Notes: a model not told the origin generated them from the sequence alone. A stretch of DNA of 64,000 bases from an uncultured Chloroflexia bacterium (GCA_963776355.1 CAVZLU010000008.1:962225-1026224), one strand, 5' to 3'; counted from the first letter of the stretch, positions 2,295 through 36,591 are shown. Made by a program: numbers and translations.

Positions 2295-2375
2295 GCGCAC
2301 CGCCGCGCGGCTGGCCTGGGTTGTTCGCCCGTCGTACGCGACCGGCGCGCGGGGTGGCGGCACCGGCCGATTGCT

Positions 2376-4430
2376 CTACCCGGATCGCAACGCCATCTCC
2401 AGGAAGGCGAGCACGTCCGCCCGCTCATCGATCAGCTTGCCGACCGGCTTGCCGACGCCGTGGCCGGCGTCGGTGTCGACCCGGATGACGATCGGCGCCT
2501 CGCCCGCCTGCGCCGCCTGGAGCGCCGCGGCGAACTTGAGGGAGTGCCCCGGCACGACGCGGTCGTCGTGGTCGCCGGTGGTCACGAGCGTCGCCGGGTA
2601 GGCGACGCCGGGACGCACGTTGTGGAGCGGCGAGTAGGCGAGGAGCGTGCGGAACTGCTCCGGGTCGTCGGCCGAGCCGTAGTCGGCCGTCCAGCCCCAG
2701 CCGATCGTGAAGCGGTGGAAGCGGAGCATGTCCATCACCCCGACCTCGGCCACCGCGGCGCCGACGAGCTCCGGGTGCTGGGTGATGGTTGCACCCACCA
2801 GCAGGCCACCATTCGAGCGTCCGCTGATCCCGATCCGCGAGGGCCGCGTCCACCCCGATGCCGCCAGCCACCGGGCGCAGGCGGCGAAGTCGTCGAAGAC
2901 GTTCTGCTTGTTGGCCAGCCGCCCGGCGTCGTGCCAGGCCCTGCCGTACTCCCCTCCCCCGCGCAGCGCCGCGACGGCGAGCAGGCCGCCCCGCTCCATC
3001 CACGCGAGCCACTCCGGCTTGAACATCGGGCCGATCGGGACCTGGAAGCCGCCATATCCGTAGAGGAGCGTGGGCACGTCGCCGCTGCGGGCGACATCGC
3101 GGCGGTGCGCCAGGAAGAGCGGTACCGGCGTCCCGTCGCCGGACGTGACGAACACCTGCTCGCTCACGAAGTCGTCGGGATTCCAGGCGAAGGCCGGCGG
3201 TCCCACCGGGCGAACGGCTCCGTCCGCCATCGTCACGGCAAGCAGCGACGGCGGGGCGGAGAAGGTCATGAAGGTGACGAACAGCTCGTCATCGCGGACC
3301 CGTCCGGCCATGTCGACGATCGTGCCGATCCCGGGCAGGGCCACGTCGACCACGTGGCGCCCGTCGAGCTCGAAGATGGCCAGCCGGTGGTGGGCGTGAT
3401 GGAGGTACACGGCCGCAAGACGGCTCCCGACGAGGCGCACGCGCTCGAGCGCATCCGCGCCCTCCGGGATGATCTCGCGCGGGTGGTCGGGGTCGGAGAG
3501 GTCGACGGCGACGACGCGGCCGAGCGGGGCGTCGCGGTCGGTCAGCAGGTAGAGGGTCTCCCCGACGGTGGCGATGTGGGCGTAGTGGGCGTCGGCCGCG
3601 TCGAGGAGCGGGCGCACGATGGCCGCCTCGACGCCGGCCGCGAGGTCCGCGACGTAGATCCGGTCCTCCGGGTCGCTGCCCCGCCAGACGCCGAGCACCA
3701 GCAGCCGGCCGTCGTCGGAGACCTCGGGCTCGTAGCCCCATTCGGGCTCGTGCGGCGTCGCGAAGACGAGGTGGTCGTCCGCCGCGTCGGTGCCGAGCCG
3801 GTGGTAGCGCAGCTCCATGTCGCGGTTGGGCGTGTCGTCGGCCGCGCCGCCCGGTGGCTGGGGGTAGCGGCAGTAGAAGAAGCCGGCGTCGTCATGCGTC
3901 CACGCCGCCGACGAGAACTTGCTCCAGGCGATCCGGTCGGGCAGGTCCTGGCCGGTCGCGACGCGCCGCACACCCCAGGTGCGCCAGTCGGAGCCCGCGT
4001 CGCTCGTGGCGCAGGCGACGAGCTCGCCGCTCTCGGCGACCGCTACCGCCGCGAGGGCCGTGGTGCCCTGCTCGCCCAGCCGGTTCGGGTCGAGGAGCAC
4101 CGCGCCCGCCGCCACGGGCCCATCGGCCGTCCAGAGGACGTCCTGGTCCTGGAGGCCCGTGTTCCGGAGCTGGAACCAGCGGTCGCCGCGCCGCCACGGA
4201 GCGCCCGCGCGCGGGAAGTCCCACAGCTCCGCGAGACGCTCGCGGATCGCGCGCCGAGCAGGGACCTCGCCGAGGACGGCCTCGCTCAGCGCGTTCTGGG
4301 CCGCGATCCACGCGCGCGTCGCCGGCGCGTCGCCGTCCTCCAGCGGGCGGTACGGATCGGCGATGGGCGTGCCGTGGTAGTCGTCGACCTGGTCGGCGAT
4401 TGGGGGCGGAGGGTACGTCAGCCCGGGCAT
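2376..4430 (-). CDS. Prolyl oligopeptidase (S9A serine peptidase)
   Basis: The N-terminus has DDYHGTPIADPYRPLED. There is a beta-propeller region and a catalytic domain with GRSNGGLL (GxSxGG). ATG 4430 (MPGLTYPPPP) is the likely start rather than 4754. Confidence 0.9.
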   Translation of the reverse strand: MPGLTYPPPPIADQVDDYHGTPIADPYRPLEDGDAPATRAWIAAQNALSEAVLGEVPARRAIRERLAELWDFPRAGAPWRRGDRWFQLRNTGLQDQDVLWTADGPVAAGAVLLDPNRLGEQGTTALAAVAVAESGELVACATSDAGSDWRTWGVRRVATGQDLPDRIAWSKFSSAAWTHDDAGFFYCRYPQPPGGAADDTPNRDMELRYHRLGTDAADDHLVFATPHEPEWGYEPEVSDDGRLLVLGVWRGSDPEDRIYVADLAAGVEAAIVRPLLDAADAHYAHIATVGETLYLLTDRDAPLGRVVAVDLSDPDHPREIIPEGADALERVRLVGSRLAAVYLHHAHHRLAIFELDGRHVVDVALPGIGTIVDMAGRVRDDELFVTFMTFSAPPSLLAVTMADGAVRPVGPPAFAWNPDDFVSEQVFVTSGDGTPVPLFLAHRRDVARSGDVPTLLYGYGGFQVPIGPMFKPEWLAWMERGGLLAVAALRGGGEYGRAWHDAGRLANKQNVFDDFAACARWLAASGWTRPSRIGISGRSNGGLLVGATITQHPELVGAAVAEVGVMDMLRFHRFTIGWGWTADYGSADDPEQFRTLLAYSPLHNVRPGVAYPATLVTTGDHDDRVVPGHSLKFAAALQAAQAGEAPIVIRVDTDAGHGVGKPVGKLIDERADVLAFLEMALRSG

Positions 4431-8442: not shown

Positions 8443-9426
8443 GTGACGCGACGGGGCCTCGTCCTGTTCGGGCTGATGTCGATCATCTGGGGAATCCCGT
8501 ATCTCTTCATCCGGGTCGCGGTGGCCGAGATCACGCCGGCCACGCTCGTGTTCGTCCGCACGGCGATCGCCGCGGCCATCCTGGTCCCGATCGCGCTCCT
8601 GCGCGTCGACCTCCGTCCCGTGCTGCGGCGCTGGCGCTGGGTCGTTGCCTTCGCCGCCGTCGAGATCGCCATCCCGTGGGTGTTCCTGGGATCCGCCGAG
8701 CAGCAGATCTCGAGCTCGCTCGCCGGCCTGCTGATCGCGGGCGTCCCGCTGGTCGGGGCCGCGATCGCGATTGCGAGCGGGGGAACCGATCGCCTCGGAC
8801 GGACGGGGCTGCTCGGACTGCTCATCGGGCTCGCCGGGGTCGCTGCGATCGTCGGCGGCGACTTCCAGGCGTCCGACACCATCGCGCTCCTCCAGGTCGG
8901 CGTCGTGGTCGTCGGGTATGCCCTCGGGCCCGCCATCCTGTCGCGCCGCCTGGACGGGCTGCCGTCGATCGGGGTCATGGGCCTGTCCCTTGCGCTGTGC
9001 GCCATCCTGTATGCCCCGGTCGCGGCCGCCCAGTGGCCGGCGGCGATGCCCTCGGCGAACGTGCTCGCCTCCGTCGCGATCCTCGCCGTCGTCTGTACCG
9101 CGGCCGCGTTCATCCTGTTCGCCGCCCTCGTGGCGGCGATCGGCCCGGTCCGCTCCACCGTGATCACGTATGTCAACCCGGCGGTCGCGGCCGTGCTCGG
9201 CGTGGCCGTCCTGGGTGAGACGTTCACGGCGGCGATGGGGATCGGGTTTGCCCTCGTGATCCTCGGCTCGACGCTCGCGACTCGACCGGCGCGCGCGGGG
9301 GCCAGCGGCACGTCCCGGTCGGCACGGTCGGGGTCATCGGTTGGCGTCGGCGCGCCGTCCCGCCGGGGATCCGCGGCGACGGGCAGGACGATCGCCCCGA
9401 TCGCGGATGCGGACGACAACGCGTGA
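8443..9426 (+). CDS. EamA/DMT family transporter
   Basis: About 10 TM segments. The N-terminus [20 protein letters not shown] is typical of EamA. GTG start. Confidence 0.8.
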
Positions 9427-9532
9427 TCGCGTCCGGGACGGCTCCCCTGCCGGGCGACGCCCGAGCGGGCGGCCGCGATCGCAGCTGAGGCTCCGCGTCG
9501 CATCGCCAGCCCATCCGTGGCAGGATCGGTGG

Positions 9533-9985
9533 ATGCCATTGAGCGGCGACTACGCACCCGGGACTTCCGCCTGGGCCCGCAAGCAGGCCGAGCTCTATGA
9601 GGCCACGGGCGGCGCAGAGGGTGGCGACCTGCGGGGGCGTCCGATCATCGTCCTGACCTCGGTCGGCGCGAAGACGGGCAGGCTGCGCAAGACGGCGCTG
9701 ATGCGGGTCGAGCACGCCGGCGTCTACGCGGTCGTGGCGTCGAAGGGCGGCGCCCCGAAGCACCCGGTCTGGTACCACAACCTGGTGGCCAACCCGATCG
9801 TCGAGCTCCAGGACGGCCCATCGAGGCGCGACTACCGGGCCCGCGAGGTCACCGGCACCGAGAAGTCGACGTGGTGGGCGAGGGCGGTGGCCACGTGGCC
9901 GGACTACGCCCGGTACCAGGCGAAGACCACGCGGGAGATCCCCGTCTTCGTCCTCGAGCCGATCGAGGCCGCGACGCCCACCTGA
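9533..9985 (+). CDS. Deazaflavin (F420)-dependent nitroreductase-family oxidoreductase (DUF385)
   Basis: [66 protein letters not shown]. The ATG at 9533 is preferred over the track start 9341. Confidence 0.8.
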
Positions 9986-10087
9986 CGCGAGGCTCGACGC
10001 GGGCGTTCCCGCGCGGCGCTGAGCCGGCCAGCGGGCTGCCCGGGCGGCCGATGTCGAACCCCGCCGACGCCCGGCCGACTGTCGTCC

Positions 10088-10522
10088 TCAGGAACCGGCG
10101 CCCGCGTCGCCGGCCTCGCGAACCGTCGGGCTCTGCTGGACGGCCCAGCTGTTGCCGTCGGGGTCGTCGAAGAAGAGGAAGGAGTTCCAGTCTCCGCCCG
10201 GCCCATCGACGAAGCCGGTCCCGTCGTGGTGCTGGACGGCGGATACGGGCACGCCGCGCGAAAGCAGATCGGCCCGCGCGGCCACGATGTCGGCCACCGA
10301 GAGCTGCAAGCCCTTCAACGAGCCGGGCTCCATGTGGGCGAGCCCCGTGCCGATGGTGACCGAGCACCCCGAGCCCTGGGGTGTCAGCTGGACGACCCGG
10401 AAGCTCTCGCTGGGCGCCATGTCCACGTCGACGTGGAAGCCGACCTGCTCGCTGTAGAAGCGCTTGGCCCGGTCGACGTCGCTCACGGGGACGACCACGA
10501 CCTCGAGCTTGTACTCCATCAT
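10088..10522 (-). CDS. VOC/glyoxalase family protein
   Basis: MMEYKLEVVVVPVSDVDRAKRFY...FFDDPDGNSW. The RBS is GGAGGGGG. ATGA overlap with the upstream gene. Confidence 0.8.
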   Translation of the reverse strand: MMEYKLEVVVVPVSDVDRAKRFYSEQVGFHVDVDMAPSESFRVVQLTPQGSGCSVTIGTGLAHMEPGSLKGLQLSVADIVAARADLLSRGVPVSAVQHHDGTGFVDGPGGDWNSFLFFDDPDGNSWAVQQSPTVREAGDAGAGS

Positions 10523-11016
10523 CGCCCCCTCCCCGACTCGACCGGCGCGAGCCGCTCGATGAGCTCGTCCAGGCGCTCGTAGCCCTCGTTGACGCCGCTC
10601 TCCATGCCGGCCGCGACCATCGCGTCCCGGGCCTCGACGGACTGGTGGACCGATCGTCCTCGGACGAGCGTCCGTCCGCCGCGGTCCTCGAACGTGATCG
10701 AGTCGAGGGCGACGTGGCCGGGTGCACCCTCGTACTCGAAGGTCTGCACGATCCCGTCCACCGACGGCGCACCGTGGAACACGCCGTGGAAGCCGTGCTC
10801 GGCGCCGCCCGGCTCGCGCTGGACATAGCGCCACGTGCCGCCGTCGCGCACCTCGAAGCGGTCGATCTCCGTCGTCAGACGACGTGGCCCGAGCCACTGC
10901 ACGAGCAGCTCGGGGTCCGTATGGGCGCGATACACCAGCTCCCGCGGGGCGTTGAACTCGCGGGCGAAGTCGATGATCGGCACGCCCGGATCGGCGGTGA
11001 TGGTGGTGGTGGTCAT
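10519..11016 (-). CDS. SRPBCC/AHSA1 (Aha1-like) domain protein
   Basis: 165 aa: ...REFNAPRELVYRAHTDPELLVQWLGP...GVFHG...MESGVNEGYERLDELI. This is the usual partner of ArsR-type regulators. Confidence 0.75.
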   Translation of the reverse strand: MTTTTITADPGVPIIDFAREFNAPRELVYRAHTDPELLVQWLGPRRLTTEIDRFEVRDGGTWRYVQREPGGAEHGFHGVFHGAPSVDGIVQTFEYEGAPGHVALDSITFEDRGGRTLVRGRSVHQSVEARDAMVAAGMESGVNEGYERLDELIERLAPVESGRGR

Positions 11017-11051
11017 CGCGTGGTCCCCCTTTTCCGACCGCCCGGCGGCGA

Positions 11052-11387
11052 TCATTCCTGGTGATCGCCCTGCAGCGCCGCGAGCAGGGCGTCGAGACGC
11101 TCGTGACTCTCGTCCCAGAACGCCTGGTAGCGCGCCAGCCAGGTGGTCGCGTCGCGGAGCGGCTCGGCCTCCAGGTGGCTGAGGCGGGTCGTCGCCCGCC
11201 GGCTGCGAGAGATCAGCCCTGCCCGCTCGAGCACCTTCAGGTGGCGAGAGATGGCGGGCTGCGATACGGAGAACGGGGCGGACAGCTCCGCGACCGTCAG
11301 GTCGCCGCCGGCCAGGCGGGCCAGGATGGCCCGTCGGGTGGGATCGGCGAGGGCGCCAAAGACGGCGTTCAAGGGCTCGGTCGTCAT
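11052..11387 (-). CDS. ArsR/SmtB family transcriptional regulator
   Basis: FGALADPTRRAILARLAGGDLTVAELSAPFSVSQPAISRHLKVLERAGLI (winged HTH). Confidence 0.9.
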   Translation of the reverse strand: MTTEPLNAVFGALADPTRRAILARLAGGDLTVAELSAPFSVSQPAISRHLKVLERAGLISRSRRATTRLSHLEAEPLRDATTWLARYQAFWDESHERLDALLAALQGDHQE

Positions 11388-25698: not shown

Positions 25699-27393
25699 CT
25701 AGACCTCCACCACCACCGGGAAGACCATCGGCCGGCGTTTCGTCTGCTCGTAGAGGTAGCGGGAGACGCCGTCCTTGATCTGGCTCTTCAGGAGGGCGAC
25801 CTCGCTGATGTGGCTGCCGGGATTCTCGATCGCCGCGACGACGCGGGCCACCGCCTCGGCCATGATCGGGTCGTTCTCGTTGAGGTGGACGAAGCCGCGC
25901 GTGACGATCTCCGGCCGTCCCACGATCGTGCCCGTCTGCTTGTCGACCGTGACGACGACCATGAACATGCCGTCGTTGGCGAGCGCCCGGCGGTCGCGGA
26001 GGACGATCTCGCCCACGTCGCCCACGGAGAGGCCGTCGACGTAGACGTAGCCGGCGGTTACCGGCTGGGCGCGACGGGCGGACCCGTCGGCGAAGAACTC
26101 GATGGGCTGCCCGTTCTCGATGATGAGGACGTTGTCCGGCGCCACGCCGGTCTCCATCGCCAGGCGACCGTGCTGCACCTGCATCCGGAACTCGCCGTGC
26201 ATCGGGATGAAGTAGCGCGGCCGGGTCAGGACGAGCATGAGCTTGAGCTCCTCCTGGCTGGCGTGGCCCGAGACATGGGCCCGCTTGATGGCGTGGTAGA
26301 AGACGTTCGCCCCCGCCTTGAAGAGGTTGTCGATCGTCCGCGACACGTACTCCTCGTTGCCGGGAATCGGGCTGGCCGAGACGATGACGGTGTCACCCGC
26401 CTGGATCTCCACGAACCGGTGGTCGCGGTTGGCCATCCGGGCGAGGCCGGCCATCGGCTCGCCCTGGGCGCCGGTCGTGGCGATCACAAGGCGCTTCGGC
26501 GGTTGCGCGCCGATCTGGTCCTTGGAGATGATCCGGCCGGTGTCGTAGGTCAGGTACCCGAGCTCGGTGGCGATCCGGAAGTTCTGCTCCATCGACCGCC
26601 CCACGACCGCGACCTTGCGGTCGAAGGTCGCGGCGGCGTCGAGGACCTGCTGGATGCGGGCGATGTTGCTGGCGAAGGTGGCCACGATCACGCGCCCCTC
26701 GAGGGGCTCCATGATCTCGCGGAAGGCCTCGCCCACCGTTCGCTCGGACGGCGTGTAGCCCGGGTTCTCGGCCCGCGTCGAGTCGGACAGCAGGCAGATG
26801 ACGCCCTCGGCGCCGAGCCTCGCCAGGGTCGCGAAGTCGGACGGCTTGCCGTCGACGGGCGTGTGGTCGAACTTGAAGTCCCCGGTGTGGACCACGACGC
26901 CCACCGGGGTGCGGATGGCCACGCCCATGGCGTCCGGGATCGAGTGGCCGATCCGGAAGGGGATGACGGTGAAGGGGCCGATGCTGAGCTCGTCGCCCGG
27001 GTCGAGCGGCAGCAGGGGGTTGTTGTGGAGCTTGTGCTCCTTCACCTTCGTGCCCAGCAGGCCGCGGGCCAGCGTCGAGGCATAGACGGGGACGCCGGGG
27101 AACTCGGGGAGCACGTAGGGCAGGCCGCCGACATGGTCCTCGTGGGCATGGGTGATGACGAACGCCTTCACCATCTCGCGGCGCGAGCGGAGATAGGCGA
27201 CGTCGGGAATCACGAGGTCGATGCCGAACATCTCCTCGTCGGGGAACATGAGCCCGCAGTCGACGACGATGATCGCGTCGTCGTACTCGAAGACGTACAT
27301 GTTCTTGCCGATCTCCCCCACCCCGCCCAGGGGGATGACGCGGAGCGGCAGGCCGAGGTCGGCCGGCTTCTGGACGGAGCCCTCGACGGTCAT
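25699..27393 (-). CDS. rnj: Ribonuclease J
   Basis: RVIPLGGVGEIGKNMYVFEYDD, ITHAHEDHVGGLPY (metallo-beta-lactamase/beta-CASP), 564 aa. Confidence 0.95.
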   Translation of the reverse strand: MTVEGSVQKPADLGLPLRVIPLGGVGEIGKNMYVFEYDDAIIVVDCGLMFPDEEMFGIDLVIPDVAYLRSRREMVKAFVITHAHEDHVGGLPYVLPEFPGVPVYASTLARGLLGTKVKEHKLHNNPLLPLDPGDELSIGPFTVIPFRIGHSIPDAMGVAIRTPVGVVVHTGDFKFDHTPVDGKPSDFATLARLGAEGVICLLSDSTRAENPGYTPSERTVGEAFREIMEPLEGRVIVATFASNIARIQQVLDAAATFDRKVAVVGRSMEQNFRIATELGYLTYDTGRIISKDQIGAQPPKRLVIATTGAQGEPMAGLARMANRDHRFVEIQAGDTVIVSASPIPGNEEYVSRTIDNLFKAGANVFYHAIKRAHVSGHASQEELKLMLVLTRPRYFIPMHGEFRMQVQHGRLAMETGVAPDNVLIIENGQPIEFFADGSARRAQPVTAGYVYVDGLSVGDVGEIVLRDRRALANDGMFMVVVTVDKQTGTIVGRPEIVTRGFVHLNENDPIMAEAVARVVAAIENPGSHISEVALLKSQIKDGVSRYLYEQTKRRPMVFPVVVEV

Positions 27394-27397
27394 GGAG

Positions 27398-28150
27398 TCA
27401 CCGGAAGAGCGTCAGCTGGTCGGAAGCCGGTGGATCCGGCTCGGAGGTGGCGGGCGACGGGGCGGGGGGTTCCGGGACAGGGGGGGCGGCGGCCGGCGAG
27501 GCACCCGCCGCCGGGGCGAGCTCCGGGCCGGTGGGTGTCGCCCCGCCCGGGCCTGCCCGCCGGGCGCGGGCGTCGTCGAGGGCAGCCGGGACGACCGCCA
27601 TGTCGGCGTAGCTCGCCTGCTCGATGGCCGGCGTGCGGAGCGCTGCCGCAGGATGGTAGAGGGCGAGCACGAGCGCGGCCCGGGCGCCGGTGGAGGGGTC
27701 CGCCGGACGAACCGTCCCGTGAGCCCGGCTGATCGTCGTGCCCGGCATGAAGCGGGCCATCGAGTGGCGTCCGAGGGTGACGACGAGCGCCGGGTCCAGG
27801 GCCTCGAGCTGGCGCTGGAGGAACGGCAGGCAGGCGGCCATCTCATCGGGCTCCGGATCCCGGTTGTCGGGCGGGCGGCACTTGACGATGTTCGTGATGA
27901 AGGTGTCCTCCCGCCGCCAGCCGATCGACGCCAGCAGCTGGACGAGCAGGTCGCCCGCCCGGCCGACGAAGGGCCGGCCCTGGCGGTCCTCGTTCACGCC
28001 GGGGCCCTCGCCCACGAAGACCACCTCCGTGCTCGGGTGCCCCTCGCCCGGGACGGCGTTCGTGCGGCCCTCGTGGAGCCGGCAGCGCGTGCAGGCCCGG
28101 ACCTCCGCCGCGATCGCCTCGAGCGCCGCGCGGCGTTCGGCCTCGGTCAC
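27398..28150 (-). CDS. udg: Family 4 uracil-DNA glycosylase with Pro/Ala-rich tail
   Basis: ACTRCRLHEGRTNAVPGEGHP..VVFVGEGPG..GRPFVGRAG..FITNIVKCRPP..LYHPAAALR. GTG start in a GTGA overlap with asd. The C-terminus is ...SDQLTLFR. Confidence 0.85.
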   Translation of the reverse strand: MTEAERRAALEAIAAEVRACTRCRLHEGRTNAVPGEGHPSTEVVFVGEGPGVNEDRQGRPFVGRAGDLLVQLLASIGWRREDTFITNIVKCRPPDNRDPEPDEMAACLPFLQRQLEALDPALVVTLGRHSMARFMPGTTISRAHGTVRPADPSTGARAALVLALYHPAAALRTPAIEQASYADMAVVPAALDDARARRAGPGGATPTGPELAPAAGASPAAAPPVPEPPAPSPATSEPDPPASDQLTLFR

Positions 28151-29220
28151 GCGGGTGGGGCCTCCATCACCCGCCGCGACGCGGCCCGGACCCAGCCACG
28201 CTCGACGAGCACCTCGGCGAGCTCGATCGCGTTCGAGGCCGCCCCCTTGCGGATATTGTCGGACACCACCCAGAAGGCGAGGCCGCGGCCTCCGGGGATG
28301 GAGGGATCGCTGCGCACGCGGCCGACGAAGATCTCGTCGCTGCCGGCCGCCGCCGTGGCCAGCGGGTAGAGGTGGACGGACGGGTCGTCCCGAACCTCCA
28401 CGCCGGGCACCGCGGCGAACAGCGCGCGGGCCCTGTCGGCCGTGATCGGCTCGCGCGTCTCCACGTGGACCGCCTCGGAGTGGCTCATGAAGACGGGGAT
28501 GCGGACGGCCGTGCAGGAGACGCGCAGCTCCGGGAGGTGGAGGATCTTGCGCGACTCCGTGACGACCTTCCACTCCTCCTTCGTGTAGCCGTTCTCCAGG
28601 AAGACGTCGATCTCCGGGAGGGCGTTGAAGGCGATCGGGTGGGGGTAGACGCGGGGCTCCTTGGGAACACCCGCGACGTGGGCCCGGATCTGCGCCTCGA
28701 GCTCGGCGATCGCCCGCCGGCCGGTCCCCGACACGGCCTGGTAGGTGTCGACGACGATGCGCTCGAGGCCCACGGCGTCGCGAATGGCCATGAGCGGCGG
28801 CACGAGCTGCATCGTGCTGCAGTTGGGGTTGGCGATGATTCCCTGGTGCGCCTCGAGGTCGGCGGGATTGACCTGGCTGACAACGAGGGGGATGTCCGGC
28901 TCCATGCGCCAGGCGCTCGAGTTGTCGATCACCGTGCACCCGCGGGCTGCCGCGTGGGGCGCGAGCTCGCGGGAGACGCTGGCACCGGCCGAGAAGAGGG
29001 CGATGTCGACGCCCTCGAACGCCTGGGGGGTGGCTTCGTGCACCTCGACCTGGCGCCCGTCGAAGGGGAGGGTCATCCCCGCCGATCGAGCCGAGGCCAG
29101 CAGGTGGATCTCCCCGATCGGGAAGTCCCGCTCGAGGAGGACAGTGGCCATCATGCGGCCGACGACGCCGGTGGCACCGACGACGGCAACGGAAAGGGGG
29201 CGGGAATGGTGTCCGGACAT
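28147..29220 (-). CDS. asd: Aspartate-semialdehyde dehydrogenase
   Basis: VAVVGATGVVG...IIANPNCSTMQLV...YQAVSGTG. The start is ATG 29220. Confidence 0.95.
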   Translation of the reverse strand: MSGHHSRPLSVAVVGATGVVGRMMATVLLERDFPIGEIHLLASARSAGMTLPFDGRQVEVHEATPQAFEGVDIALFSAGASVSRELAPHAAARGCTVIDNSSAWRMEPDIPLVVSQVNPADLEAHQGIIANPNCSTMQLVPPLMAIRDAVGLERIVVDTYQAVSGTGRRAIAELEAQIRAHVAGVPKEPRVYPHPIAFNALPEIDVFLENGYTKEEWKVVTESRKILHLPELRVSCTAVRIPVFMSHSEAVHVETREPITADRARALFAAVPGVEVRDDPSVHLYPLATAAAGSDEIFVGRVRSDPSIPGGRGLAFWVVSDNIRKGAASNAIELAEVLVERGWVRAASRRVMEAPPA

Positions 29221-29263
29221 GGCTCCGCTTTCAGGGCGCGAGAAGACCGACGGGCACCGCCCG

Positions 29264-29269
29264 AGTATA
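29264..29269 (-). promoter_or_regulatory. -10-like TATACT (ctgcTATACTcgggcgg) upstream of asd
   Basis: It lies 44 nt upstream of the asd ATG and has a TGn extended -10. It is a member of the recurrent motif family. Confidence 0.4.
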
Positions 29270-29272
29270 GCA

Positions 29273-29298
29273 GCGCCCCCGGGAGTTCCCGGGGGCGC
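29273..29298 (-). terminator. GC hairpin after pnp (GCGCCCCCGGGA..TCCCGGGGGCGC)
   Basis: 12-nt perfect inverted arms with a 2-nt centre. It starts 47 nt after the pnp stop and sits immediately upstream of the asd -10-like box. Confidence 0.5.
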
Positions 29299-29344
29299 CG
29301 TCCTGCCGATGGCCGGGGCCGGGTCGCCGCCCAGCCCCTCAGCC

Positions 29345-31924
29345 CTATCCCCGGGCGAGGTGCCGCTGCATCGCGGCCTTGCGGGAGAGGTTGACGCGAC
29401 CCTGGCGATCGACCTCGGTGACGACGACCATGACCTCGTCGCCGACGGAGACGACGTCCTCGACGGAGGGTACGTGGTAGTCGGCAAGCTCGCCGATCCG
29501 GACGAGGCCTTCCTTGCCCGGGAGGATCTCGACGAAGGCGCCGAAGGTCATGAGACGGGTGACGGTGCCGAGATAGAGGGCGCCGATCTCGACCTCGCGG
29601 GTGAGGCTCTCGATCCACAGGATCGCCTTGCGGGCGTTCTCGCCCTGGACGGCGGCGATCTCGACGGTGCCGTCGTCCTCGACGTTGATCTCGGTGCCGG
29701 TCTCCTCCTGGATCTTGCGGATCATCGAGCCGCCCTTGCCGATGATGTCGCGGATCTTCTCCGGGTTGATCTTGATCTTCGTGATCCGGGGCGCGAAGTC
29801 GCTCATCGTCTCGCGGGCGGACGGCAGGACCTCGGTCATCTTGTCGAGGATCGTGATGCGGGCGGCATAGGCCTTCGCCAGCCCCTCGCGGATGATGGCC
29901 TCGTTGATGCCCTTGACCTTGATGTCCATCTGGAGGGCGGTGATCCCCTCGCGGGTCCCGGTGACCTTGAAGTCCATGTCGCCGAAGGCATCCTCCTTGC
30001 CGAGGATGTCGGTGAGGACCGTGAAGGTCCCGTCGGGCTCCGACATGAGGCCCATCGCGGCGCCCGCGACCGGGGCCAGGATCGGCACGCCGGCATCCAT
30101 GAGGGCGAGCGTGGAGCCGCAGGTCGAGGCCATCGACGTCGAGCCGTTGGAGGTCACGCACTCCGACACGAGCCGGATGACGTAGGGGAAGTCGTCCTTC
30201 GACGGGAGCACGGGGATGAGGGCCCGCTCGGCGAGATGGCCGTGGCCGATCTCGCGCCGGCCGGGTCCGCGCATCATCTTGTTCTCGCCCGTGCTGTACG
30301 GCGGCATGTTGTAGTGATGGAGGTAGCGCTTCTCGAGCTCCGGGCTGATCGTGTCGATGCGCTGCACGTCCGACGACGGGCCGAGCGTGGCCACGGTCAG
30401 GGCCTGGGTCTCGCCGCGGGTGAAGAGGCCCGAGCCGTGGGCGCGCGGCACGAGGCCGACCTCCACGGTGATCGGCCGGATCTCGTCGACCCGGCGGCCG
30501 TCCATCCGGATCCCCTCGGAGAGGGTGAGCTTGCGGGCGGTCTTCTTGTGGACGAGACCGAAGAGCGCCTTGCTGACGCGGGCCGCCCGGCGGGCCCCAT
30601 CCAGCTTCGCCTTCGCCTCGTCCTTCGACGAGCGCTGGGCGCGGATCGAGTCGGCGATGCCCTCCGCGAGGGTGTCGAGGCGAGCCGGCAGGTCAGCGGC
30701 GATGGCGACGAGCAGCTGGGCCGTGGCCTCGGCGTCCGGCAGGGCTCGGTGGGCCTGCCCGAGCTCGATGCCGAAGAAGCGGGACAGCTCGCCGAGGGTG
30801 TAGCTGGGGAGGTCCGGATACCCGTCCCGGGCGAGGGTGAGGGTGTCGAGATAGCGGCCCTTCTCGATCCGCGTCCCGTCGCCGAGGGCGGCCTCGAGGA
30901 AGGCGATGTCGAAGCCCACGGAGTGGCCGACGATCGTGGCCTCGCCGACGAAGTCGAGCGCGCTGCGGGCCGCGGCGGCCGGGCTCGGGGCGCCCTTGAC
31001 CTCCTTGTCGGTGATGCCGTGCATCTGGTTGCCGAAGATGGGCCGCCCGGGATTGACGAACGTCGACCAGCGATCGGTGACCTTGCCCTTCCGGACCCTC
31101 ACCGCCGCGATCTCGACGAGGTCGGCCATCTCGGGGTTCGTCCCCGTGGTCTCGACATCCACGATCACGAACTCGGCCCCGGCCCGGGCGCGAGCCGCGA
31201 AGTCGAGGACCGATTCGGTACCCGGGTCCAGGAACGGCAGGCGCTTGGCCTTGCCGACGGCGTCCTGGAGCTCGAGCTGGAGCAGGATGAGCGGCTCGAG
31301 GGCGCGGTGGGCGAACAGGATCGCCTCGGCCATCACGTCCTCGGGCAGGATCTTCGCCCCGGCCTCGACCATCATGATGGCGTCGCGGGTGCCGGACACG
31401 ATGAGGTCGAGCTCGCTCTCCTCGAGCTGCGGGATCGTGGGATTGATGACGAACTCGCCGTCGATCCGCCCCAGCCGCACGGCCGCGATCGGTCCCTGGA
31501 ACGGGATCTCGCTGATGGTGAGGGCCGCCGAGGCCGCGATCGTGCCCAGGACGTCGGGGTTGTTCTCCTGGTCGGTGGAGAGGACCGTGATGACGCACTG
31601 GACGTCGTCCTTGTACCCCTCGGGAAAGAGCGGGCGGATCGGGCGGTCCGTCAGGCGCGCGGCGAGGATGGCCGCCTCCGACGGGCGCGACTCGCGCTTG
31701 ATGAAGCCGCCCGGGATCTTGCCGGCGGCGTACATCCGCTCCTCGAAGTCGATCGTGAGGGGAAAGAAGTCGAGGCCGGGCCGCGGCTCGGACCGGTTCG
31801 CGGTGCCCAGCACGACCGTGTCGCCGTAGCGCACGGTCACCGAGCCACCCGCCAGGCGGGCGAGCCTGCCGGTCTCGATGGTCAGCGTGCGACCACCGAA
31901 CTCGACGGAGAGAGAATGAGACAC
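29345..31924 (-). CDS. pnp: Polynucleotide phosphorylase with an inserted DEDDh (DnaQ/RNase T-like) exonuclease domain
   Basis: One uninterrupted 859-aa ORF with a GTG start and RBS AAGGAG. It contains PH1 (FFPLTIDFEERMYAAGKIPGGF), an exonuclease insert at aa ~250-412, PH2 (RMDGRRVDEIRPI...SNGSTSMASTCG), KH (GKGGSMIRKIQE) and S1 (GTVTRLMTFGAFVEILPGKEGLV). Confidence 0.9.
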   Translation of the reverse strand: MSHSLSVEFGGRTLTIETGRLARLAGGSVTVRYGDTVVLGTANRSEPRPGLDFFPLTIDFEERMYAAGKIPGGFIKRESRPSEAAILAARLTDRPIRPLFPEGYKDDVQCVITVLSTDQENNPDVLGTIAASAALTISEIPFQGPIAAVRLGRIDGEFVINPTIPQLEESELDLIVSGTRDAIMMVEAGAKILPEDVMAEAILFAHRALEPLILLQLELQDAVGKAKRLPFLDPGTESVLDFAARARAGAEFVIVDVETTGTNPEMADLVEIAAVRVRKGKVTDRWSTFVNPGRPIFGNQMHGITDKEVKGAPSPAAAARSALDFVGEATIVGHSVGFDIAFLEAALGDGTRIEKGRYLDTLTLARDGYPDLPSYTLGELSRFFGIELGQAHRALPDAEATAQLLVAIAADLPARLDTLAEGIADSIRAQRSSKDEAKAKLDGARRAARVSKALFGLVHKKTARKLTLSEGIRMDGRRVDEIRPITVEVGLVPRAHGSGLFTRGETQALTVATLGPSSDVQRIDTISPELEKRYLHHYNMPPYSTGENKMMRGPGRREIGHGHLAERALIPVLPSKDDFPYVIRLVSECVTSNGSTSMASTCGSTLALMDAGVPILAPVAGAAMGLMSEPDGTFTVLTDILGKEDAFGDMDFKVTGTREGITALQMDIKVKGINEAIIREGLAKAYAARITILDKMTEVLPSARETMSDFAPRITKIKINPEKIRDIIGKGGSMIRKIQEETGTEINVEDDGTVEIAAVQGENARKAILWIESLTREVEIGALYLGTVTRLMTFGAFVEILPGKEGLVRIGELADYHVPSVEDVVSVGDEVMVVVTEVDRQGRVNLSRKAAMQRHLARG

Positions 31925-31997
31925 GAGCTACTCCTTGCCCGTGCCGGCGCGGGACCGAGGGCCGAGCGCGGGTGACGCCCGGGCCGAGATGCGCGAA

Positions 31998-32021
31998 GAC
32001 CCGGGGCGCCTGCCCCGGGTC
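31998..32021 (-). promoter_or_regulatory. 10-bp GC hairpin in the rpsO-pnp intergenic leader
   Basis: Minus strand GACCCGGGGC-aggc-GCCCCGGGTC, starting 14 nt after the rpsO stop and ending about 73 nt before the pnp GTG. Confidence 0.5.
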
Positions 32022-32034
32022 CCCGATGCGGGTG

Positions 32035-32304
32035 CTAGCGCCGCAGGCCCAGGCGGGCGATGACGGCCCGATACCTGGGGGCGTCCTTCTTCACGAGGTA
32101 CGCGAGAAGGCGCCGGCGCTGGCCGACCAGCTTGAGGAGGCCGCGGCGGGAGTGGTTGTCCTTGGGGAACTGCTTCAGGTGCCCCGTGAGGTCCTTGATC
32201 CGTTCCGTGAGGAGCGCGATCTGGACTTCCGGGGAGCCGGTGTCACCGGGCTTGACGCCGTACTCGGCGACGATCCGGTCCTTGGTTTCCCGCACGAGCG
32301 GCAC
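32035..32304 (-). CDS. rpsO: 30S ribosomal protein S15
   Basis: ...[50 protein letters not shown]...GLRR. GTG 32304 (GGAGGA-n4) gives the canonical 89 aa. The track start is 32319. Confidence 0.95.
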
Positions 32305-32353
32305 TCGGTCCTCCGACACGATTGACTTGTACTACCGTTTCTTCAACCCGCGG

Positions 32354-32497: not shown

Positions 32498-33256
32498 ATG
32501 ACGACCGACGAGCCGCCTCCCCCACCGCGCGTGCTGGCCGTCATCCCGGCCCACGACGAGGGGCCGCGGATCGCGGCCGTGGTCGCGGGGGCGGCGGTCC
32601 ACCTGCCCGTGCTCGTGGTGGACGACGGGTCGGCGGACGCGACGGCCGCCGTCGCCCGCGGGGCGGGCGCTGACGTCCTCGAGCAGCGCCCGAACGCGGG
32701 CAAGGGCGCCGCCCTGCGGGTTGGGTTCCGGTGGGCCCTGGATCGTGGCTACGAGGGGGCGCTCACGCTCGACGGCGACGGCCAGCATGACCCCGCCGAG
32801 ATCCCCGCGTTCCTGGCGGCCTTCGCCGGCGGCACGCCGGGCGACCCCGGCCGGCCCGTCGCCCCCGCCGCCGGCCGCCGTCCCGACCTGGTCGTCGGGC
32901 GGCGCGACTTCGCCCGCATGCCGGCGGCCCGCCGGCTCGCGAACACGCTCGGGGGCCAGGCGTTCTCCTGGGCCGTGGGGTCGTCCGTGCCCGACAACCA
33001 GTCGGGCTACCGACTGGTCGGTCGGCGCCTCATGGAGACGGCCCTCGGCAGTGACGAGCCGGGGTTCGAGTTCGAGGTCGAGATGCTCGCGACCTGCATT
33101 GCCCGTGGCTGGCCGGTCGCGTGGGTCCCGATCCGCACGATCTACGCCGGCGAACCCAGCCACATCCGGCCCGCGGCCCATGTGCGCCACTTCCTGCGGG
33201 CCGTGGCCGCGGCCCGGCGGACCGTCCGGGCGACCAAGGTCGACCGGGCTCCCTGA
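32498..33256 (+). CDS. Family 2 glycosyltransferase (polyprenol-phosphate sugar transferase-like)
   Basis: VLAVIPAHDEGPRI...LVVDDGSADAT...NAGKGAALRVG...TLDGDGQHDP. It is the only plus-strand gene between 17 kb and 64 kb. Confidence 0.85.
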   Translation: MTTDEPPPPPRVLAVIPAHDEGPRIAAVVAGAAVHLPVLVVDDGSADATAAVARGAGADVLEQRPNAGKGAALRVGFRWALDRGYEGALTLDGDGQHDPAEIPAFLAAFAGGTPGDPGRPVAPAAGRRPDLVVGRRDFARMPAARRLANTLGGQAFSWAVGSSVPDNQSGYRLVGRRLMETALGSDEPGFEFEVEMLATCIARGWPVAWVPIRTIYAGEPSHIRPAAHVRHFLRAVAAARRTVRATKVDRAP

Positions 33257-34069: not shown

Positions 34070-35015
34070 CCGCGGCCTCGCGATCGAGGAGCACCTTGTC
34101 GGTCACGAGTCGTCCGCCCGGGGCGACCCGCGCGATCGCGGCCAGCCCGCCTCCGGGCGTCCGCAGGCGAACCGCGGTCCCCACCGCGGTCCCGGACCCC
34201 GCCGGGCCGAGGCGATCAACGTGCCCGATCCACCCGCCGTGGGCCACGGCGCGCAGCTCCGCCGGCGCGAGGTCGACGGCCGGCAGGTCGTCGAGGCCGG
34301 CCTCCACGGGAAGCAGCAGGTCGCCCAGGCGCTCCCCGGCCGCCGCCGCCCGCAGCTCGTCGAGCGGATGGGCGTCGGCGAGGCTGAACGGACCCGAGGC
34401 TGTCCGCCGCAGCGCCCCCAGGTAGGCGGCGCTGCCGACGGCGAGGCCGAGGTCGCGGGCCAGGGCCCGCACGTAGGTGCCGGCCGAGCAGGACACGTCC
34501 ACGACCGCGGTCGGATGCTCCGCGTCGGCATCATCCCAGGCGGCAATGGCGAGCGCGTGGAACGTGACCGCCCGCGGCTTGAGCTCGGGCATCTCGCCGC
34601 GGCGGGCGAGGGCGTAGGCACGCCGGCCACCGACCTTGCGGGCCGAGAAGGCCGGCGGCCGCTGCTCCTGCGAGCCGACGAAGCCCGCCAGGGCAGCCTC
34701 GACCGCCGCCCGGGTGGGCGCCGCGGCGGCCGCGGGCGTCAGCTCGCCCTCGAGGTCGTCCGTCGTCGACCCGGCCCCGAAGACGACGGTCGCGCGATAC
34801 GCCTTGCGGGCGCCGAGGTGGAACTCGACCACCCGCGTCCCGAGGCCGAGATAGAGCGGCAGGACGCCGGAGGCGAAGGGGTCGAGGGTGCCGCCGTGCC
34901 CGATCCTGCGGGTCCCGGCGAGACGACGGACGAGGGCGACGACGTCGTGCGATGTCGGGCCGATCGGCTTGTCGACCACGAGGATGCCGTCGACCCGGGC
35001 TCGCTCCGCGCTCAC
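34062..35015 (-). CDS. truB: tRNA pseudouridine(55) synthase TruB
   Basis: GILVVDKPIGPTSHDVV...IGHGGTLDPFASGVLPL. GTG start in a GTGA overlap with nrnA, and an 8-nt overlap with ribF. Confidence 0.9.
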   Translation of the reverse strand: MSAERARVDGILVVDKPIGPTSHDVVALVRRLAGTRRIGHGGTLDPFASGVLPLYLGLGTRVVEFHLGARKAYRATVVFGAGSTTDDLEGELTPAAAAAPTRAAVEAALAGFVGSQEQRPPAFSARKVGGRRAYALARRGEMPELKPRAVTFHALAIAAWDDADAEHPTAVVDVSCSAGTYVRALARDLGLAVGSAAYLGALRRTASGPFSLADAHPLDELRAAAAGERLGDLLLPVEAGLDDLPAVDLAPAELRAVAHGGWIGHVDRLGPAGSGTAVGTAVRLRTPGGGLAAIARVAPGGRLVTDKVLLDREAADA

Positions 35016-36037
35016 CGGGCCACGGCCCGGGCCATGCGCTCGGCCACGGGGAGGACCGCCGCCTTTGCCTCGGCGAGCGACAGTGGCAGCGAGGCACCCG
35101 CCGCGCGCGCATGGCCGCCGCCGCCCCACGTGCCGCACAGGAGGGTGGCGTCCACGCCGCCCGGCTTCGTGCGGACGGACAGGCGCGTCTCGGCCCCCTT
35201 CTCCTTCAGGATGAGCGCGACCTCGGCCGTCTCGGCCTGGGAGAGCAGGTCGATGATCCCCTCGGAGTGCTCGGAGAGGGCGCCCGTGGCCGCGAGGTCG
35301 GCGAGCTCGATCGTGGACGCCACGACGAGCCCGTCGGCGAGGCGCTCGAGACGCGCGAGGACCCGCCCGAAGAGGGCGAGCTGGGCGTCGGGCTTGGTGC
35401 GGTAGAGCCGCCGGCTGATGTCCGAGAGGGGCGCGCCGGCTTCGACGAGCGCGGCCGCGACCCGCAGCGTCCGCGGCGTGGCGTTGGGATGGGCGAAGGT
35501 GGCGGTGTCCATCACGATCCCCGCCATCAGGGCGGTCGCGAGCCCCCCGGCCCGGGCCGCCAGGGGGATCCCGAGGCGCTCCGCGAGCAGGGCGACCATC
35601 TCGCAGGTGGCCGCGGCGGCCGGGTCGATCCAGGCCAGGTCGCCCGCCCCGCGGGTGCTGGCGTGGTGGTCGATCGTGAGGAGCGGGACGCGCGCGAACA
35701 GGTCCGCGTTCCGTTCGGGAATCGCGCCGGCGCGGGCGAGGTCGCCGCAGTCGCACAGCACGACGAGGTCGTAGGCAACGCCCGGCTCCGGATCCGTGCG
35801 CACGGCGTCGATTCCGGGGAGGAACGCGTAGATGGCGGGCACCGGATCGCTGGCGGCCACCGTGGCCCGTCCGCCGCCGGCCTCGACGAGCATCGCGATC
35901 GCGAGCGCGGCCCCGAGCGCGTCGGCATCCGGATTCTCGTGGCCGATGGCGAGGACCGCCCTCGCCGTTCGCAACCGCTCGACGACGGCCTCGGGGACGG
36001 CAGCCGCGAGCGCGGCGAGGCCGGACCCGGCCGTCAC
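35012..36037 (-). CDS. nrnA: DHH/DHHA1 phosphoesterase (NrnA-like nanoRNase/pAp phosphatase)
   Basis: IGHENPDADALGAALA..., DHH (TIDHHAS), GGGHARAAG. Confidence 0.85.
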   Translation of the reverse strand: MTAGSGLAALAAAVPEAVVERLRTARAVLAIGHENPDADALGAALAIAMLVEAGGGRATVAASDPVPAIYAFLPGIDAVRTDPEPGVAYDLVVLCDCGDLARAGAIPERNADLFARVPLLTIDHHASTRGAGDLAWIDPAAAATCEMVALLAERLGIPLAARAGGLATALMAGIVMDTATFAHPNATPRTLRVAAALVEAGAPLSDISRRLYRTKPDAQLALFGRVLARLERLADGLVVASTIELADLAATGALSEHSEGIIDLLSQAETAEVALILKEKGAETRLSVRTKPGGVDATLLCGTWGGGGHARAAGASLPLSLAEAKAAVLPVAERMARAVAR

Positions 36038-36591
36038 CGCTCCCCCCGCCGTGAACCCGGGCGCATTCCGTGGGATCGCGGGCGGCTCGCCCGGCGAGGC
36101 CGCGGGGAGGCGTCCGCCCCGGTCGCCTCCGCGGGGGCGTCCGGATCGGCGGTGGGCTCCGCGGCGTCGCCCTCCCGTCCGAGTCGCGGTACCGGCGTCG
36201 GCAGGGATTCGCCACGCGGCGCGTCCGCGAGGGCCTCTCCCTCGGCGTCCCGGCCCTGCTCGAGCTCCTCGAGGATCCGCATGACCCGGGTGCCACGTTC
36301 GGCGGAGTCGTCGAGGGCAACGTGCAGGGCCGGAATGCGCCGCAGCCGGAGGCGGACGCCGAGCTCGTGGCGCACGTAGCCCATCGCCCGCTCGAGCGCC
36401 GCCAGGGTCGCCGCCCGCTCCCGGGCCCCGCCGATGACGCTCACCCAGACCCGCGCGTGGCGCAGGTCCGGCGTCGTCTCGACGTCGGTCACGGTCGCGA
36501 ACCCGATGTGCGGATCCTGGACCTCCTTGGCCAGGATCCGCCCGATCTCCTGCCGCAGGAGCTCGTCGACGCGGTCGATCCGCTGGCTCAT
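36034..36591 (-). CDS. rbfA: Ribosome-binding factor A with a long disordered C-terminal tail
   Basis: RIDRVDELLRQEIGRIL...DPHIGFATVTDVETTPDLRHARVWVSV. Confidence 0.9.
   Translation of the reverse strand: MSQRIDRVDELLRQEIGRILAKEVQDPHIGFATVTDVETTPDLRHARVWVSVIGGARERAATLAALERAMGYVRHELGVRLRLRRIPALHVALDDSAERGTRVMRILEELEQGRDAEGEALADAPRGESLPTPVPRLGREGDAAEPTADPDAPAEATGADASPRPRRASRPRSHGMRPGSRRGER

Follow-up and report, generated by a model that had tools for sequence, protein, structure and literature searches.

The window analysed here, a 64,000-nucleotide stretch of DNA from an uncultured Chloroflexia bacterium (GCA_963776355.1 CAVZLU010000008.1:962225-1026224), carries a pnp gene whose product, a polynucleotide phosphorylase (PNPase), contains a complete DEDDh (DnaQ-like) 3'-5' exonuclease domain nested in the all-alpha helical domain that links its two RNase PH cores. 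Few RNA-decay enzymes are as conserved or as well studied as PNPase, whose layout of five domains is regarded as invariable from bacteria to organelles and humans, and specialists in RNA decay would be surprised to meet a further catalytic domain within its helical one. This second, chemically different exonuclease site appears to have long been kept by an entire bacterial class, one that abounds in soils and lakes. Both catalytic sets are conserved in a single open reading frame (ORF), which supports, as far as sequence goes, the chimeric phosphorolytic and hydrolytic enzyme proposed in an earlier reading of the same DNA (hereafter the initial annotation). The features of the gene and its product are listed below with the evidence for each (aa, amino acids; pLDDT, predicted local distance difference test; dN/dS, ratio of nonsynonymous to synonymous substitution rates).

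29345..31924, minus strand: pnp, PNPase with a nested DEDDh domain; single ORF, 859 aa, GTG start (TIGR03591, 930.5 bits; Pfam domains)
31244..31924, minus strand: first RNase PH-like core (PH1), aa 1-227, including the channel loop GFIKRE at aa 73-78 (PF01138 at 11-141, PF03725 at 144-208; aligns to 5yjj 21-242)
31175..31243, minus strand: all-alpha helical domain, N-terminal piece, aa 228-250, with a predicted helix at 237-247 (AlphaFold2 secondary structure; insert-deleted alignment)
30695..31174, minus strand: predicted DEDDh (DnaQ-like) 3'-5' exonuclease insert, aa 251-410 (PF00929; PDB sequence matches to PolC, DinG and epsilon; Foldseek; dN/dS)
31151..31159, minus strand: Exo I motif, D256-V-E258 (codons translated directly)
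30908..30928, minus strand: Exo II motif, GHSVGFD, containing D339 (codons translated directly)
30734..30751, minus strand: Exo III motif, H392-RALP-D397, the H-x4-D arrangement that defines the DEDDh subclass (codons translated directly)
30560..30694, minus strand: all-alpha helical domain, C-terminal piece, aa 411-455 (AlphaFold2 pLDDT ~90; NF008805 aligns query 405-850 to profile 238-682)
29825..30559, minus strand: second, catalytic RNase PH core (PH2), aa 456-700 (PDB alignment)
30128-30148, minus strand: phosphate site NGSTSMA, aa 593-599 (aligns with the 5yjj motif)
29966-29995, minus strand: metal site EDAFGDMDFK, aa 644-653 (aligns with the 5yjj motif)
29378..29782, minus strand: KH (aa 715-772) and S1 (aa 778-849) RNA-binding domains (PF00013, E-value 6e-12; PF00575, E-value 6.5e-18)

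The pnp reading frame (29345-31924, minus strand) has no internal stop, and Pfam searches of its product returned two RNase_PH and two RNase_PH_C matches together with KH_1 (715-772) and S1 (778-849), so that both the uninterrupted 859-aa ORF and the recognisable PH1, PH2, KH and S1 domains of the initial annotation are upheld. The PNPase equivalog model TIGR03591 matched at 930.5 bits (cut-off 525) and a second PNPase model, NF008805, at 927.8 bits (cut-off 471), each in two stretches on either side of the insert. Residues D645, D651 and K653 are presumably the counterparts of the E. coli PNPase metal ligands D486, D492 and K494 (see also PMC2723993). Equivalog score, domain order, active-site motifs and synteny all place the product in the PNPase family. 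The insert itself was detected by the RNase_T profile PF00929 (cut-off 24 bits) over aa 253-405, with the full length of the profile aligned (positions 1-164 of 164; E-value 1.4e-25, 91.2 bits), and scored 94.2 bits against the same profile when taken alone. Direct translation recovered the Exo I, II and III motifs named in the initial annotation, including the D256/E258 codons at 31151-31159 and the H-x4-D pair formed by H392 and D397. Profile, motifs and predicted fold agree in assigning the insert to the DEDDh superfamily; the initial identification of the block as a DEDDh exonuclease domain is borne out by the full-length PF00929 match and by the catalytic-position alignments and Foldseek comparisons described below.

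Insertion point and domain anatomy

In phmmer comparisons with PDB sequences, query residues 6-227 aligned with residues 21-242 of 5yjj and query residues 456-852 with residues 314-709, leaving 228 residues between the aligned PH flanks in the query versus ~71 in 5yjj. When aa 251-410 were deleted in silico, the remaining protein was of canonical length and gave a single colinear alignment with every solved PNPase; the insert-deleted region comprised 239 query residues versus 242 in 5yjj, and the deletion junction fell ~20 residues inside the helical domain. By these alignments the extra block is a cleanly bounded insertion of 160 aa within the all-alpha linker domain. The initial annotation had described a block of about 165 aa (aa 250-412; 30689-31177) at the usual site of the linker; the insertion stands, with its boundaries refined to aa 251-410 (30695-31174), but the linker appears to be split rather than displaced. 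Profile searches gave RNase_T (PF00929) for aa 253-405 and PF01138 and PF03725 for the flanks, as that annotation had anticipated; PF03726, the profile of the all-alpha domain, had no match in the pnp product and matched a few of its homologues.

An AlphaFold2 model of the whole protein, built on an 86-sequence alignment (mean pLDDT 78, predicted TM-score 0.71), had pLDDT values of 79-95 per 10-residue block across residues 221-500. In this model, helix 237-247 is followed by a beta-alpha DEDDh fold from residue 252, helix 394-429, helices 434-448 and 452-470, and then PH2, and a separate model of aa 219-480 (pLDDT 86.9) had the same arrangement. Models and alignments together indicate that the all-alpha domain has been kept but split, with one helix (237-247) ahead of the insert and three helices (~411-470) behind it. 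The helix that carries Exo III runs unbroken into the helical-domain piece in the whole-protein model, forming the 36-residue helix 394-429, and the join between insert and helical domain is thus predicted to be rigid at its C-terminal side. Replacement of the helical domain by the insert was also considered, and is argued against by the predicted flanking helices and by the colinear insert-deleted alignment.

In the order of its domains (PH1, helical, PH2, KH, S1), in its phosphate and metal sites, in its channel loop and in its rpsO-pnp locus, the pnp product resembles the canonical PNPases of E. coli, C. crescentus, S. antibioticus and Staphylococcus; unlike them, it has a 160-aa DEDDh domain nested in the helical domain. 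Foldseek comparison of the predicted product with solved PNPases gave target-normalised TM-scores of 0.70-0.88, and the best 50 target chains were PNPases of 510-730 residues, from which it follows that no solved PNPase has such an insert. The proportion of G or C at third codon positions (GC3) is 0.956 in the insert versus 0.95-0.97 in the remainder of pnp, no flanking repeats were found around the insert, and Pfam and NCBIfam searches of the product gave no match to intein or transposase families; the initial annotation had likewise noted gene-like codon usage and no hallmarks of inteins or mobile elements.

Ancestry, conservation and spread of the insert

Among PDB sequences, the insert was most similar to the PolC exonuclease (9qpc, E-value 1.6e-24; also 2p1j) and next to the S. 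aureus DinG exonuclease (8zef, 1.5e-17), with further matches to Cas2-DEDDh (8fy9, 3e-10), a streptococcal DnaQ domain and the DNA polymerase III (Pol III) epsilon subunit. Similarity to RNase T (2f96) was marginal (E-value 6e-5, 26 bits), Orn did not occur among the PDB matches listed for the insert, and neither the RNase T nor the Orn families occurred among the NCBIfam matches listed for the pnp product. Residues D256, E258, D339, H392 and D397 align at the catalytic positions of the PolC, DinG and Pol III epsilon exonucleases. The insert is predicted to adopt an RNase H-like alpha/beta fold, and a Foldseek search with the predicted structure returned DinG, PolC and epsilon (TM 0.80-0.83) in that order, followed by RNase T, ExoX, ExoI and TREX2; the superposition on the PolC exonuclease had a root-mean-square deviation of 2.1 A over 163 columns at 36% identity, and the probability was 1.00 for both DinG and RNase T. 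The best NCBIfam models for the insert were the DEDD exonuclease PRK07883, DinG and PolC, all scoring far below their whole-protein cut-offs because the domain alone matches. The nearest non-PNPase homologue among the species-genome matches listed was a DinG-type protein of 926 aa from Neomoorella carbonis (L011), whose N-terminal domain is 45% identical to the insert, and other near representatives were triple-DEDDh+UVR, DEDDh+BRCT, DinG-like and FAN1/VRR-NUC+DEDDh proteins. This sequence evidence places the donor of the insert in the DnaQ/PolC/DinG branch and outside the RNase T and Orn groups.

Narrower identities were tried and rejected. Pol III epsilon models scored below threshold (TIGR00573, 66.0 and 69.7 bits with a cut-off of 71.5; TIGR01406, 73 bits with a cut-off of 222.7), as did the DinG model NF005981 (127.9 bits, cut-off 789), whose match covers aa 251-410 only and which would call for a helicase domain that the product lacks; RNase T or Orn identity was set aside on the weak similarity to RNase T and the absence of Orn among the matches listed.

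The N-terminal DEDDh domain of DinG-type helicase-nucleases (S. aureus 8zef, B. subtilis, Listeria) is the closest free-living relative of the insert in both sequence and structure, and has the same D-E-D-H-D catalytic set. Domains of this type have 3'-5' activity on single-stranded DNA (ssDNA) and RNA (PMC12525004, PMC12345164, PMC12774634). The B. subtilis DinG is described as an exo(ribo)nuclease, and its type of DEDDh domain degrades both substrates (PMC12525004); the Listeria DinG removes unprocessed rRNA and acts on pre-rRNA (PMC12774634). The DnaQ/PolC/DinG branch is not DNA-only, so ancestry does not fix the substrate of the insert. Unlike its DinG counterparts, the insert is internal rather than N-terminal, and its host is a phosphorolytic RNase with no helicase domain. 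PolC offers a precedent for a DEDDh domain nested in another enzyme, its exonuclease occupying residues ~430-605 of the 1474-residue chain; the process differs, however, as the PNPase host has no polymerase to proofread, its own reverse reaction aside. Cas2-DEDDh (8fy9) likewise shows the family recruited into another machine as a 3'-trimming module, but its similarity to the insert is weaker (E-value 3e-10), it is a terminal fusion, and it trims DNA prespacers.

Residue conservation was counted over 222 full-length homologues. D256, E258, H392 and D397 occur in 222/222 and D339 in 221/222, and hydrolytic activity of the insert is suggested by this conservation, which holds across inserts diverging down to 43% identity; in Exo II, serine takes the place of asparagine in 126/222. 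On the PNPase side, the phosphate motif NGSTSMA is invariant, as are the metal-ligand residues D645, D651 and K653 within EDAFGDMDFK, and the channel loop GFIKRE is invariant save for F/Y at one position. In Nei-Gojobori comparisons of the window with four relatives of 86-95% protein identity, dN/dS was 0.13-0.30 for the insert and 0.05-0.22 for the PH, KH and S1 segments, and the insert is under purifying selection. Pairwise divergence of insert and core is correlated (Pearson 0.67, Mantel p <= 0.001), the insert diverging ~2.3 times faster than the core. Invariant catalytic residues, dN/dS and co-divergence form the pattern of a single old insertion that has been vertically inherited under purifying selection with its catalytic residues intact.

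More than 220 distinct homologues of full length, drawn from independent assemblies and projects and with ORFs of 857-865 aa, have the same architecture, which answers the initial annotation's call for a survey of its phylogenetic spread; the named sources are of the Chloroflexota class Limnocylindria, including soil lineages and freshwater Candidatus Limnocylindrus. An uncultivated lineage of class rank, Limnocylindria inhabits soils, sediments and lakes (PMC13212565). The best 120 database matches to the whole protein (77-100% identity, 796-890 aa) all have PF00929 together with the PNPase domains, and are drawn from NCBI, ENA and JGI, some of them on contigs of 0.2-2 Mb. Of the full-length representatives, the most divergent (P0123, 864 aa; 75% identity in PH1, 51% in the insert and 80% in PH2) falls in a clade labelled Candidatus Limnocylindrus by NCBI, and its own best 120 matches all have this architecture as well. 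When 1.84 billion 50%-cluster representatives were searched exhaustively with HMMER, a query centred on the junction (aa 190-480) gave 55 clusters at E <= 1e-30. Among the best 150 matches, 44 had the PNPase flank plus the insert, mostly as metagenomic fragments, and the remaining 106 were DnaQ-like domains in unrelated proteins; the 44 junction-spanning representatives are all query-like, with flanks of ~50-56% identity in some fragmentary or frameshifted ones, and no independent second origin of the architecture was seen among these 150. GTDB species representatives yielded at least ten loci spanning both junctions, in Chloroflexota or Limnocylindrales-type metagenome-assembled genomes (MAGs); ten is a minimum count of species, as close relatives of the window are themselves missing from the matches listed. 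From these sequences the architecture looks class-wide in Limnocylindria and is not rare within the lineage.

Three of the ten GTDB loci are labelled Patescibacteria, Polarisedimenticolia and Anaerolineaceae, and these labels look wrong; the contigs L005, L008, L002 and P0032, named 'Patescibacteria group bacterium', 'Candidatus Polarisedimenticolia bacterium' or 'uncultured Anaerolineaceae bacterium', are probably from mis-binned or mislabelled MAGs. In one species-representative MAG (L009, 4312-4402) the tblastn match to pnp is split, with residues 294-322 inside the DEDDh domain unaligned, as could result from a frameshift, a misassembly or local sequence divergence. Database names for these proteins are automatic: they are called PNPase at NCBI and, for most at JGI (P0002-P0120, P0289-P0370), 'DNA polymerase III epsilon subunit family exonuclease', a name prompted by the inserted domain and, judged against the PNPase assignment above, wrong.

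Full-text literature searches found no description of a PNPase with an inserted DEDDh domain, and a 2026 paper on Limnocylindria genomics (PMC13212565) makes no mention of PNPase or exonucleases. The initial annotation's impression that the architecture is uncharacterised agrees with these searches; rare it is not, being common in its lineage and present in databases under automatic names. What is new is the undescribed, lineage-wide arrangement of two well-known catalytic modules.

Possible roles of a PNPase with two exonuclease sites

The pnp product is, on balance, probably a bifunctional enzyme in which phosphorolytic sites and hydrolytic, phosphate-independent 3'-5' sites act on the same RNA population, and probably on ssDNA too. 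An ancestor of the class Limnocylindria would have gained a complete DEDDh domain, nested behind the first helix of the all-alpha linker domain, in a protein that would still trimerise like other PNPases. The helical domain of E. coli PNPase is on the other side of the torus from S1/KH, and forms part of a pore that reaches the active site besides the central channel, probably for nucleoside diphosphates (NDPs) and phosphate rather than for RNA entry (PMC2723993). If the trimer is kept, three Mg-dependent hydrolytic DEDDh sites would be expected on the distal face of the ring, opposite KH/S1, because the helical domain sits there in solved PNPases, and each would be held in place by the continuous helix. 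The phosphorolytic sites fed by KH/S1 would then be complemented by a second, phosphate-independent means of removing 3' nucleotides, with nucleoside monophosphates (NMPs) released at the DEDDh sites alongside NDPs from the PH2 site. The DEDDh sites might take 3' ends or fragments that are poor substrates for phosphorolysis, or RNA under phosphate scarcity; DNA 3' ends are likely to be attacked also, because ssDNA and RNA are both cut by many enzymes of this DEDDh branch. Were both sites active, the enzyme would offer a natural case of phosphorolytic and hydrolytic 3'-5' decay joined in a single ring, for which eukaryotes use separate exosome subunits; it would open a way to study the helical domain and side pore of PNPase, whose function is poorly understood, and would bear on the debated role of PNPase at DNA ends.

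Several points weigh against this bifunctional RNA-decay role. All the nearest relatives of the insert belong to proteins of DNA metabolism (DinG helicases, PolC, and fusions with BRCT, UVR and VRR-NUC), a setting in which ancestry favours DNA over RNA. The placement of the insert within the trimer follows from where the literature puts the helical domain, the alignment behind the AlphaFold2 model is shallow (69-93% identity), and the lineage is uncultivated (PMC13212565). Finally, an NrnA-like DHH/DHHA1 gene and an RNase J gene are encoded nearby, leaving no evident gap in RNA decay for the insert to fill. The last point touches also on the initial annotation's suggestion that the hydrolytic module finishes short oligonucleotides, a possibility which is weakened by the DinG/PolC/epsilon ancestry of the insert and by the NrnA-like gene, the latter a soft argument given its score of 67 bits with a cut-off of 350. 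On the same two grounds, with the same reservation as to the NrnA-like gene, the insert being unlike RNase T and Orn, a reading of the insert as the missing nanoRNase of the organism was not supported.

A tentative extension of the bifunctional role, which we would put forward as an idea more than an expectation, is that the protein is a single-chain bacterial counterpart of the exosome principle, with an active phosphorolytic ring and three hydrolytic DEDDh sites on its distal face, and with 3' ends or limit products handed between the two chemistries. The eukaryotic RNA exosome combines an inert PH-like ring with the hydrolytic Rrp44 and the DEDD-family Rrp6, and Rrp44 lies on the ring face opposite the S1/KH cap. 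The two systems thus share a PH ring with a hydrolytic 3'-5' exonuclease, and the Rrp44 face corresponds to the helical-domain face of PNPase, as a matter of analogy and not of homology. Unlike in the exosome, the hydrolytic domain of the pnp product is covalently inserted and would be present in three copies per ring, the PH2 sites stay catalytic, and the DEDDh domain is of DnaQ type, neither RNB nor an Rrp6-type DEDDy domain. The route of hand-over might be the distal mouth of the channel or the side pore at the helical domain. Phosphorolysis would yield NDPs in a phosphate-dependent, reversible reaction and hydrolysis would yield NMPs in an irreversible, phosphate-independent one, and, were this so, an abundant oligotrophic lineage could switch its RNA-decay chemistry with phosphate supply or RNA structure.

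The strongest alternative, plausible in outline but unlikely in our estimation, is that the DEDDh domain is a DNA-end module serving PNPase in its secondary functions in DNA repair and recombination, where it would hydrolytically trim 3' ssDNA tails, or remove RNA from R-loops or stalled forks, outside bulk RNA decay. Its appeal lies in the nearest homologues of the insert, the DinG N-terminal exonuclease of Neomoorella carbonis (45% identity) and the PolC exonuclease, and in other near representatives with UVR, BRCT, helicase or FAN1/VRR-NUC domains, and it accords with the 3'-5' DNase activity and DNA-repair roles documented for the PNPases of B. subtilis and E. coli (PMC2709576, PMC3241651, PMC5379764). 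The protein nevertheless keeps the KH and S1 domains, channel loop and rpsO linkage of a typical RNA enzyme, and DinG-type DEDDh domains act on RNA too (PMC12525004, PMC12774634). A uracil-DNA glycosylase gene two genes downstream of pnp would fit a DNA role, but asd lies between the two genes and the association is not a specific one.

A role in tail editing is improbable. Here a DEDDh site beside the NDP/phosphate side pore would trim the heteropolymeric 3' tails made by the PNPase reverse reaction, in the manner of a deadenylase or proofreader, and so set the balance between tailing and decay. Deadenylases do exist in the DEDD family, and the insert is predicted to be rigidly fused to the helical domain. 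That domain lines the pore through which NDPs and phosphate reach the active site (PMC2723993). The scheme is nonetheless wholly inferential, and sequence does not separate tail editing from general hydrolytic decay. More improbable still is that the DEDDh fold is non-catalytic and serves as a nucleic-acid-binding or protein-docking platform, for instance in place of a degradosome partner site. Pseudo-nucleases normally lose their catalytic residues, whereas the five here are invariant or nearly so in 222 sequences despite divergence to 43% identity, and the insert dN/dS of 0.13-0.30 points the same way; the ~2.3-fold faster evolution of the insert and the Exo II asparagine-to-serine change in 126/222 are the observations that such a platform would explain. 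An artefact or mobile insertion (a chimeric assembly, frameshift-joined genes, an intein or a mobile element) can be dismissed, since for all that some metagenome representatives are fragmentary or frameshifted, multiple independent assemblies rule it out: an ORF of 857-865 aa recurs in over 220 distinct sequences that come from independent projects and lie on contigs of up to 2 Mb. In the window, moreover, the pnp frame is free of stops, flanking repeats and intein or transposase matches, and the insert has the GC3 of the host gene.

The rpsO-pnp locus and its neighbours

The surroundings of pnp in the window include the following features.

32035..32319, minus strand: rpsO (ribosomal protein S15), directly upstream of pnp (ORF; Ribosomal_S15 called in relatives)
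31925-32034, minus strand: rpsO-pnp intergenic leader, 110 nt (predicted fold)
32498-33256, plus strand: glycosyltransferase family 2 (GT2) gene between ribF and rpsO (present in all four close relatives examined)
35012-36037, minus strand: DHH/DHHA1 protein, 341 aa, between rbfA (36034-36591) and truB (best NCBIfam match NrnA)
~27398-28200, minus strand: uracil-DNA glycosylase (UDG)-family gene (follows pnp and asd on the same strand)
25699-27393, minus strand: RNase J gene (RNase J1 model, 685 bits)

The rpsO gene lies immediately upstream of pnp in all ten GTDB loci (L001-L010), and four close relatives have the order infB-rbfA-DHH/DHHA1-truB-ribF-(GT2)-rpsO-pnp, followed by asd-UDG-RNase J. 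From the rpsO linkage and the conserved neighbourhood, the gene is identified as the housekeeping pnp in its canonical locus. Where the locus of one relative (L081) reaches that far, ftsK follows RNase J. A second relative (L082) has two genes without a Pfam match between pnp and asd (8833-11137, plus strand), and in a third (L084) a gene with an HTH_32 (transposase-like) domain lies between the GT2 gene and rpsO (1167-2471, minus strand); these extra genes are local rearrangements around an otherwise stable locus. The GT2 gene, on the opposite strand, breaks the otherwise co-directional cluster from infB to pnp.

Two major RNA-decay enzymes, PNPase and RNase J, are encoded within ~6 kb. The DHH/DHHA1 gene lies five genes upstream of pnp, and occupies the same position in both relatives that reach it (L081, L082). 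Its product aligns over its full length with NrnA (bifunctional oligoribonuclease/PAP phosphatase) at 67 bits, far below the cut-off of 350, and is a candidate nanoRNase in the pnp gene cluster.

Antisense to pnp there is a stop-free ORF of 1076 aa (28745-31975, plus strand), along with other long overlapping ORFs. Such an ORF is not evidence of a gene, because long antisense frames are typical of DNA of 73% GC.

An Rfam scan of the window at gathering thresholds gave no match. A strong fold is predicted for the rpsO-pnp leader (-74.6 kcal/mol for 131 nt, z = -2.7). A 14-bp GC hairpin without a U-tract begins ~10 nt past the rpsO stop codon, and a third hairpin presents the GGAG Shine-Dalgarno sequence in its loop and holds the GUG start codon in its stem. 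The E. coli pnp leader is processed by RNase III and autoregulated, and the leader described here is reminiscent of it.

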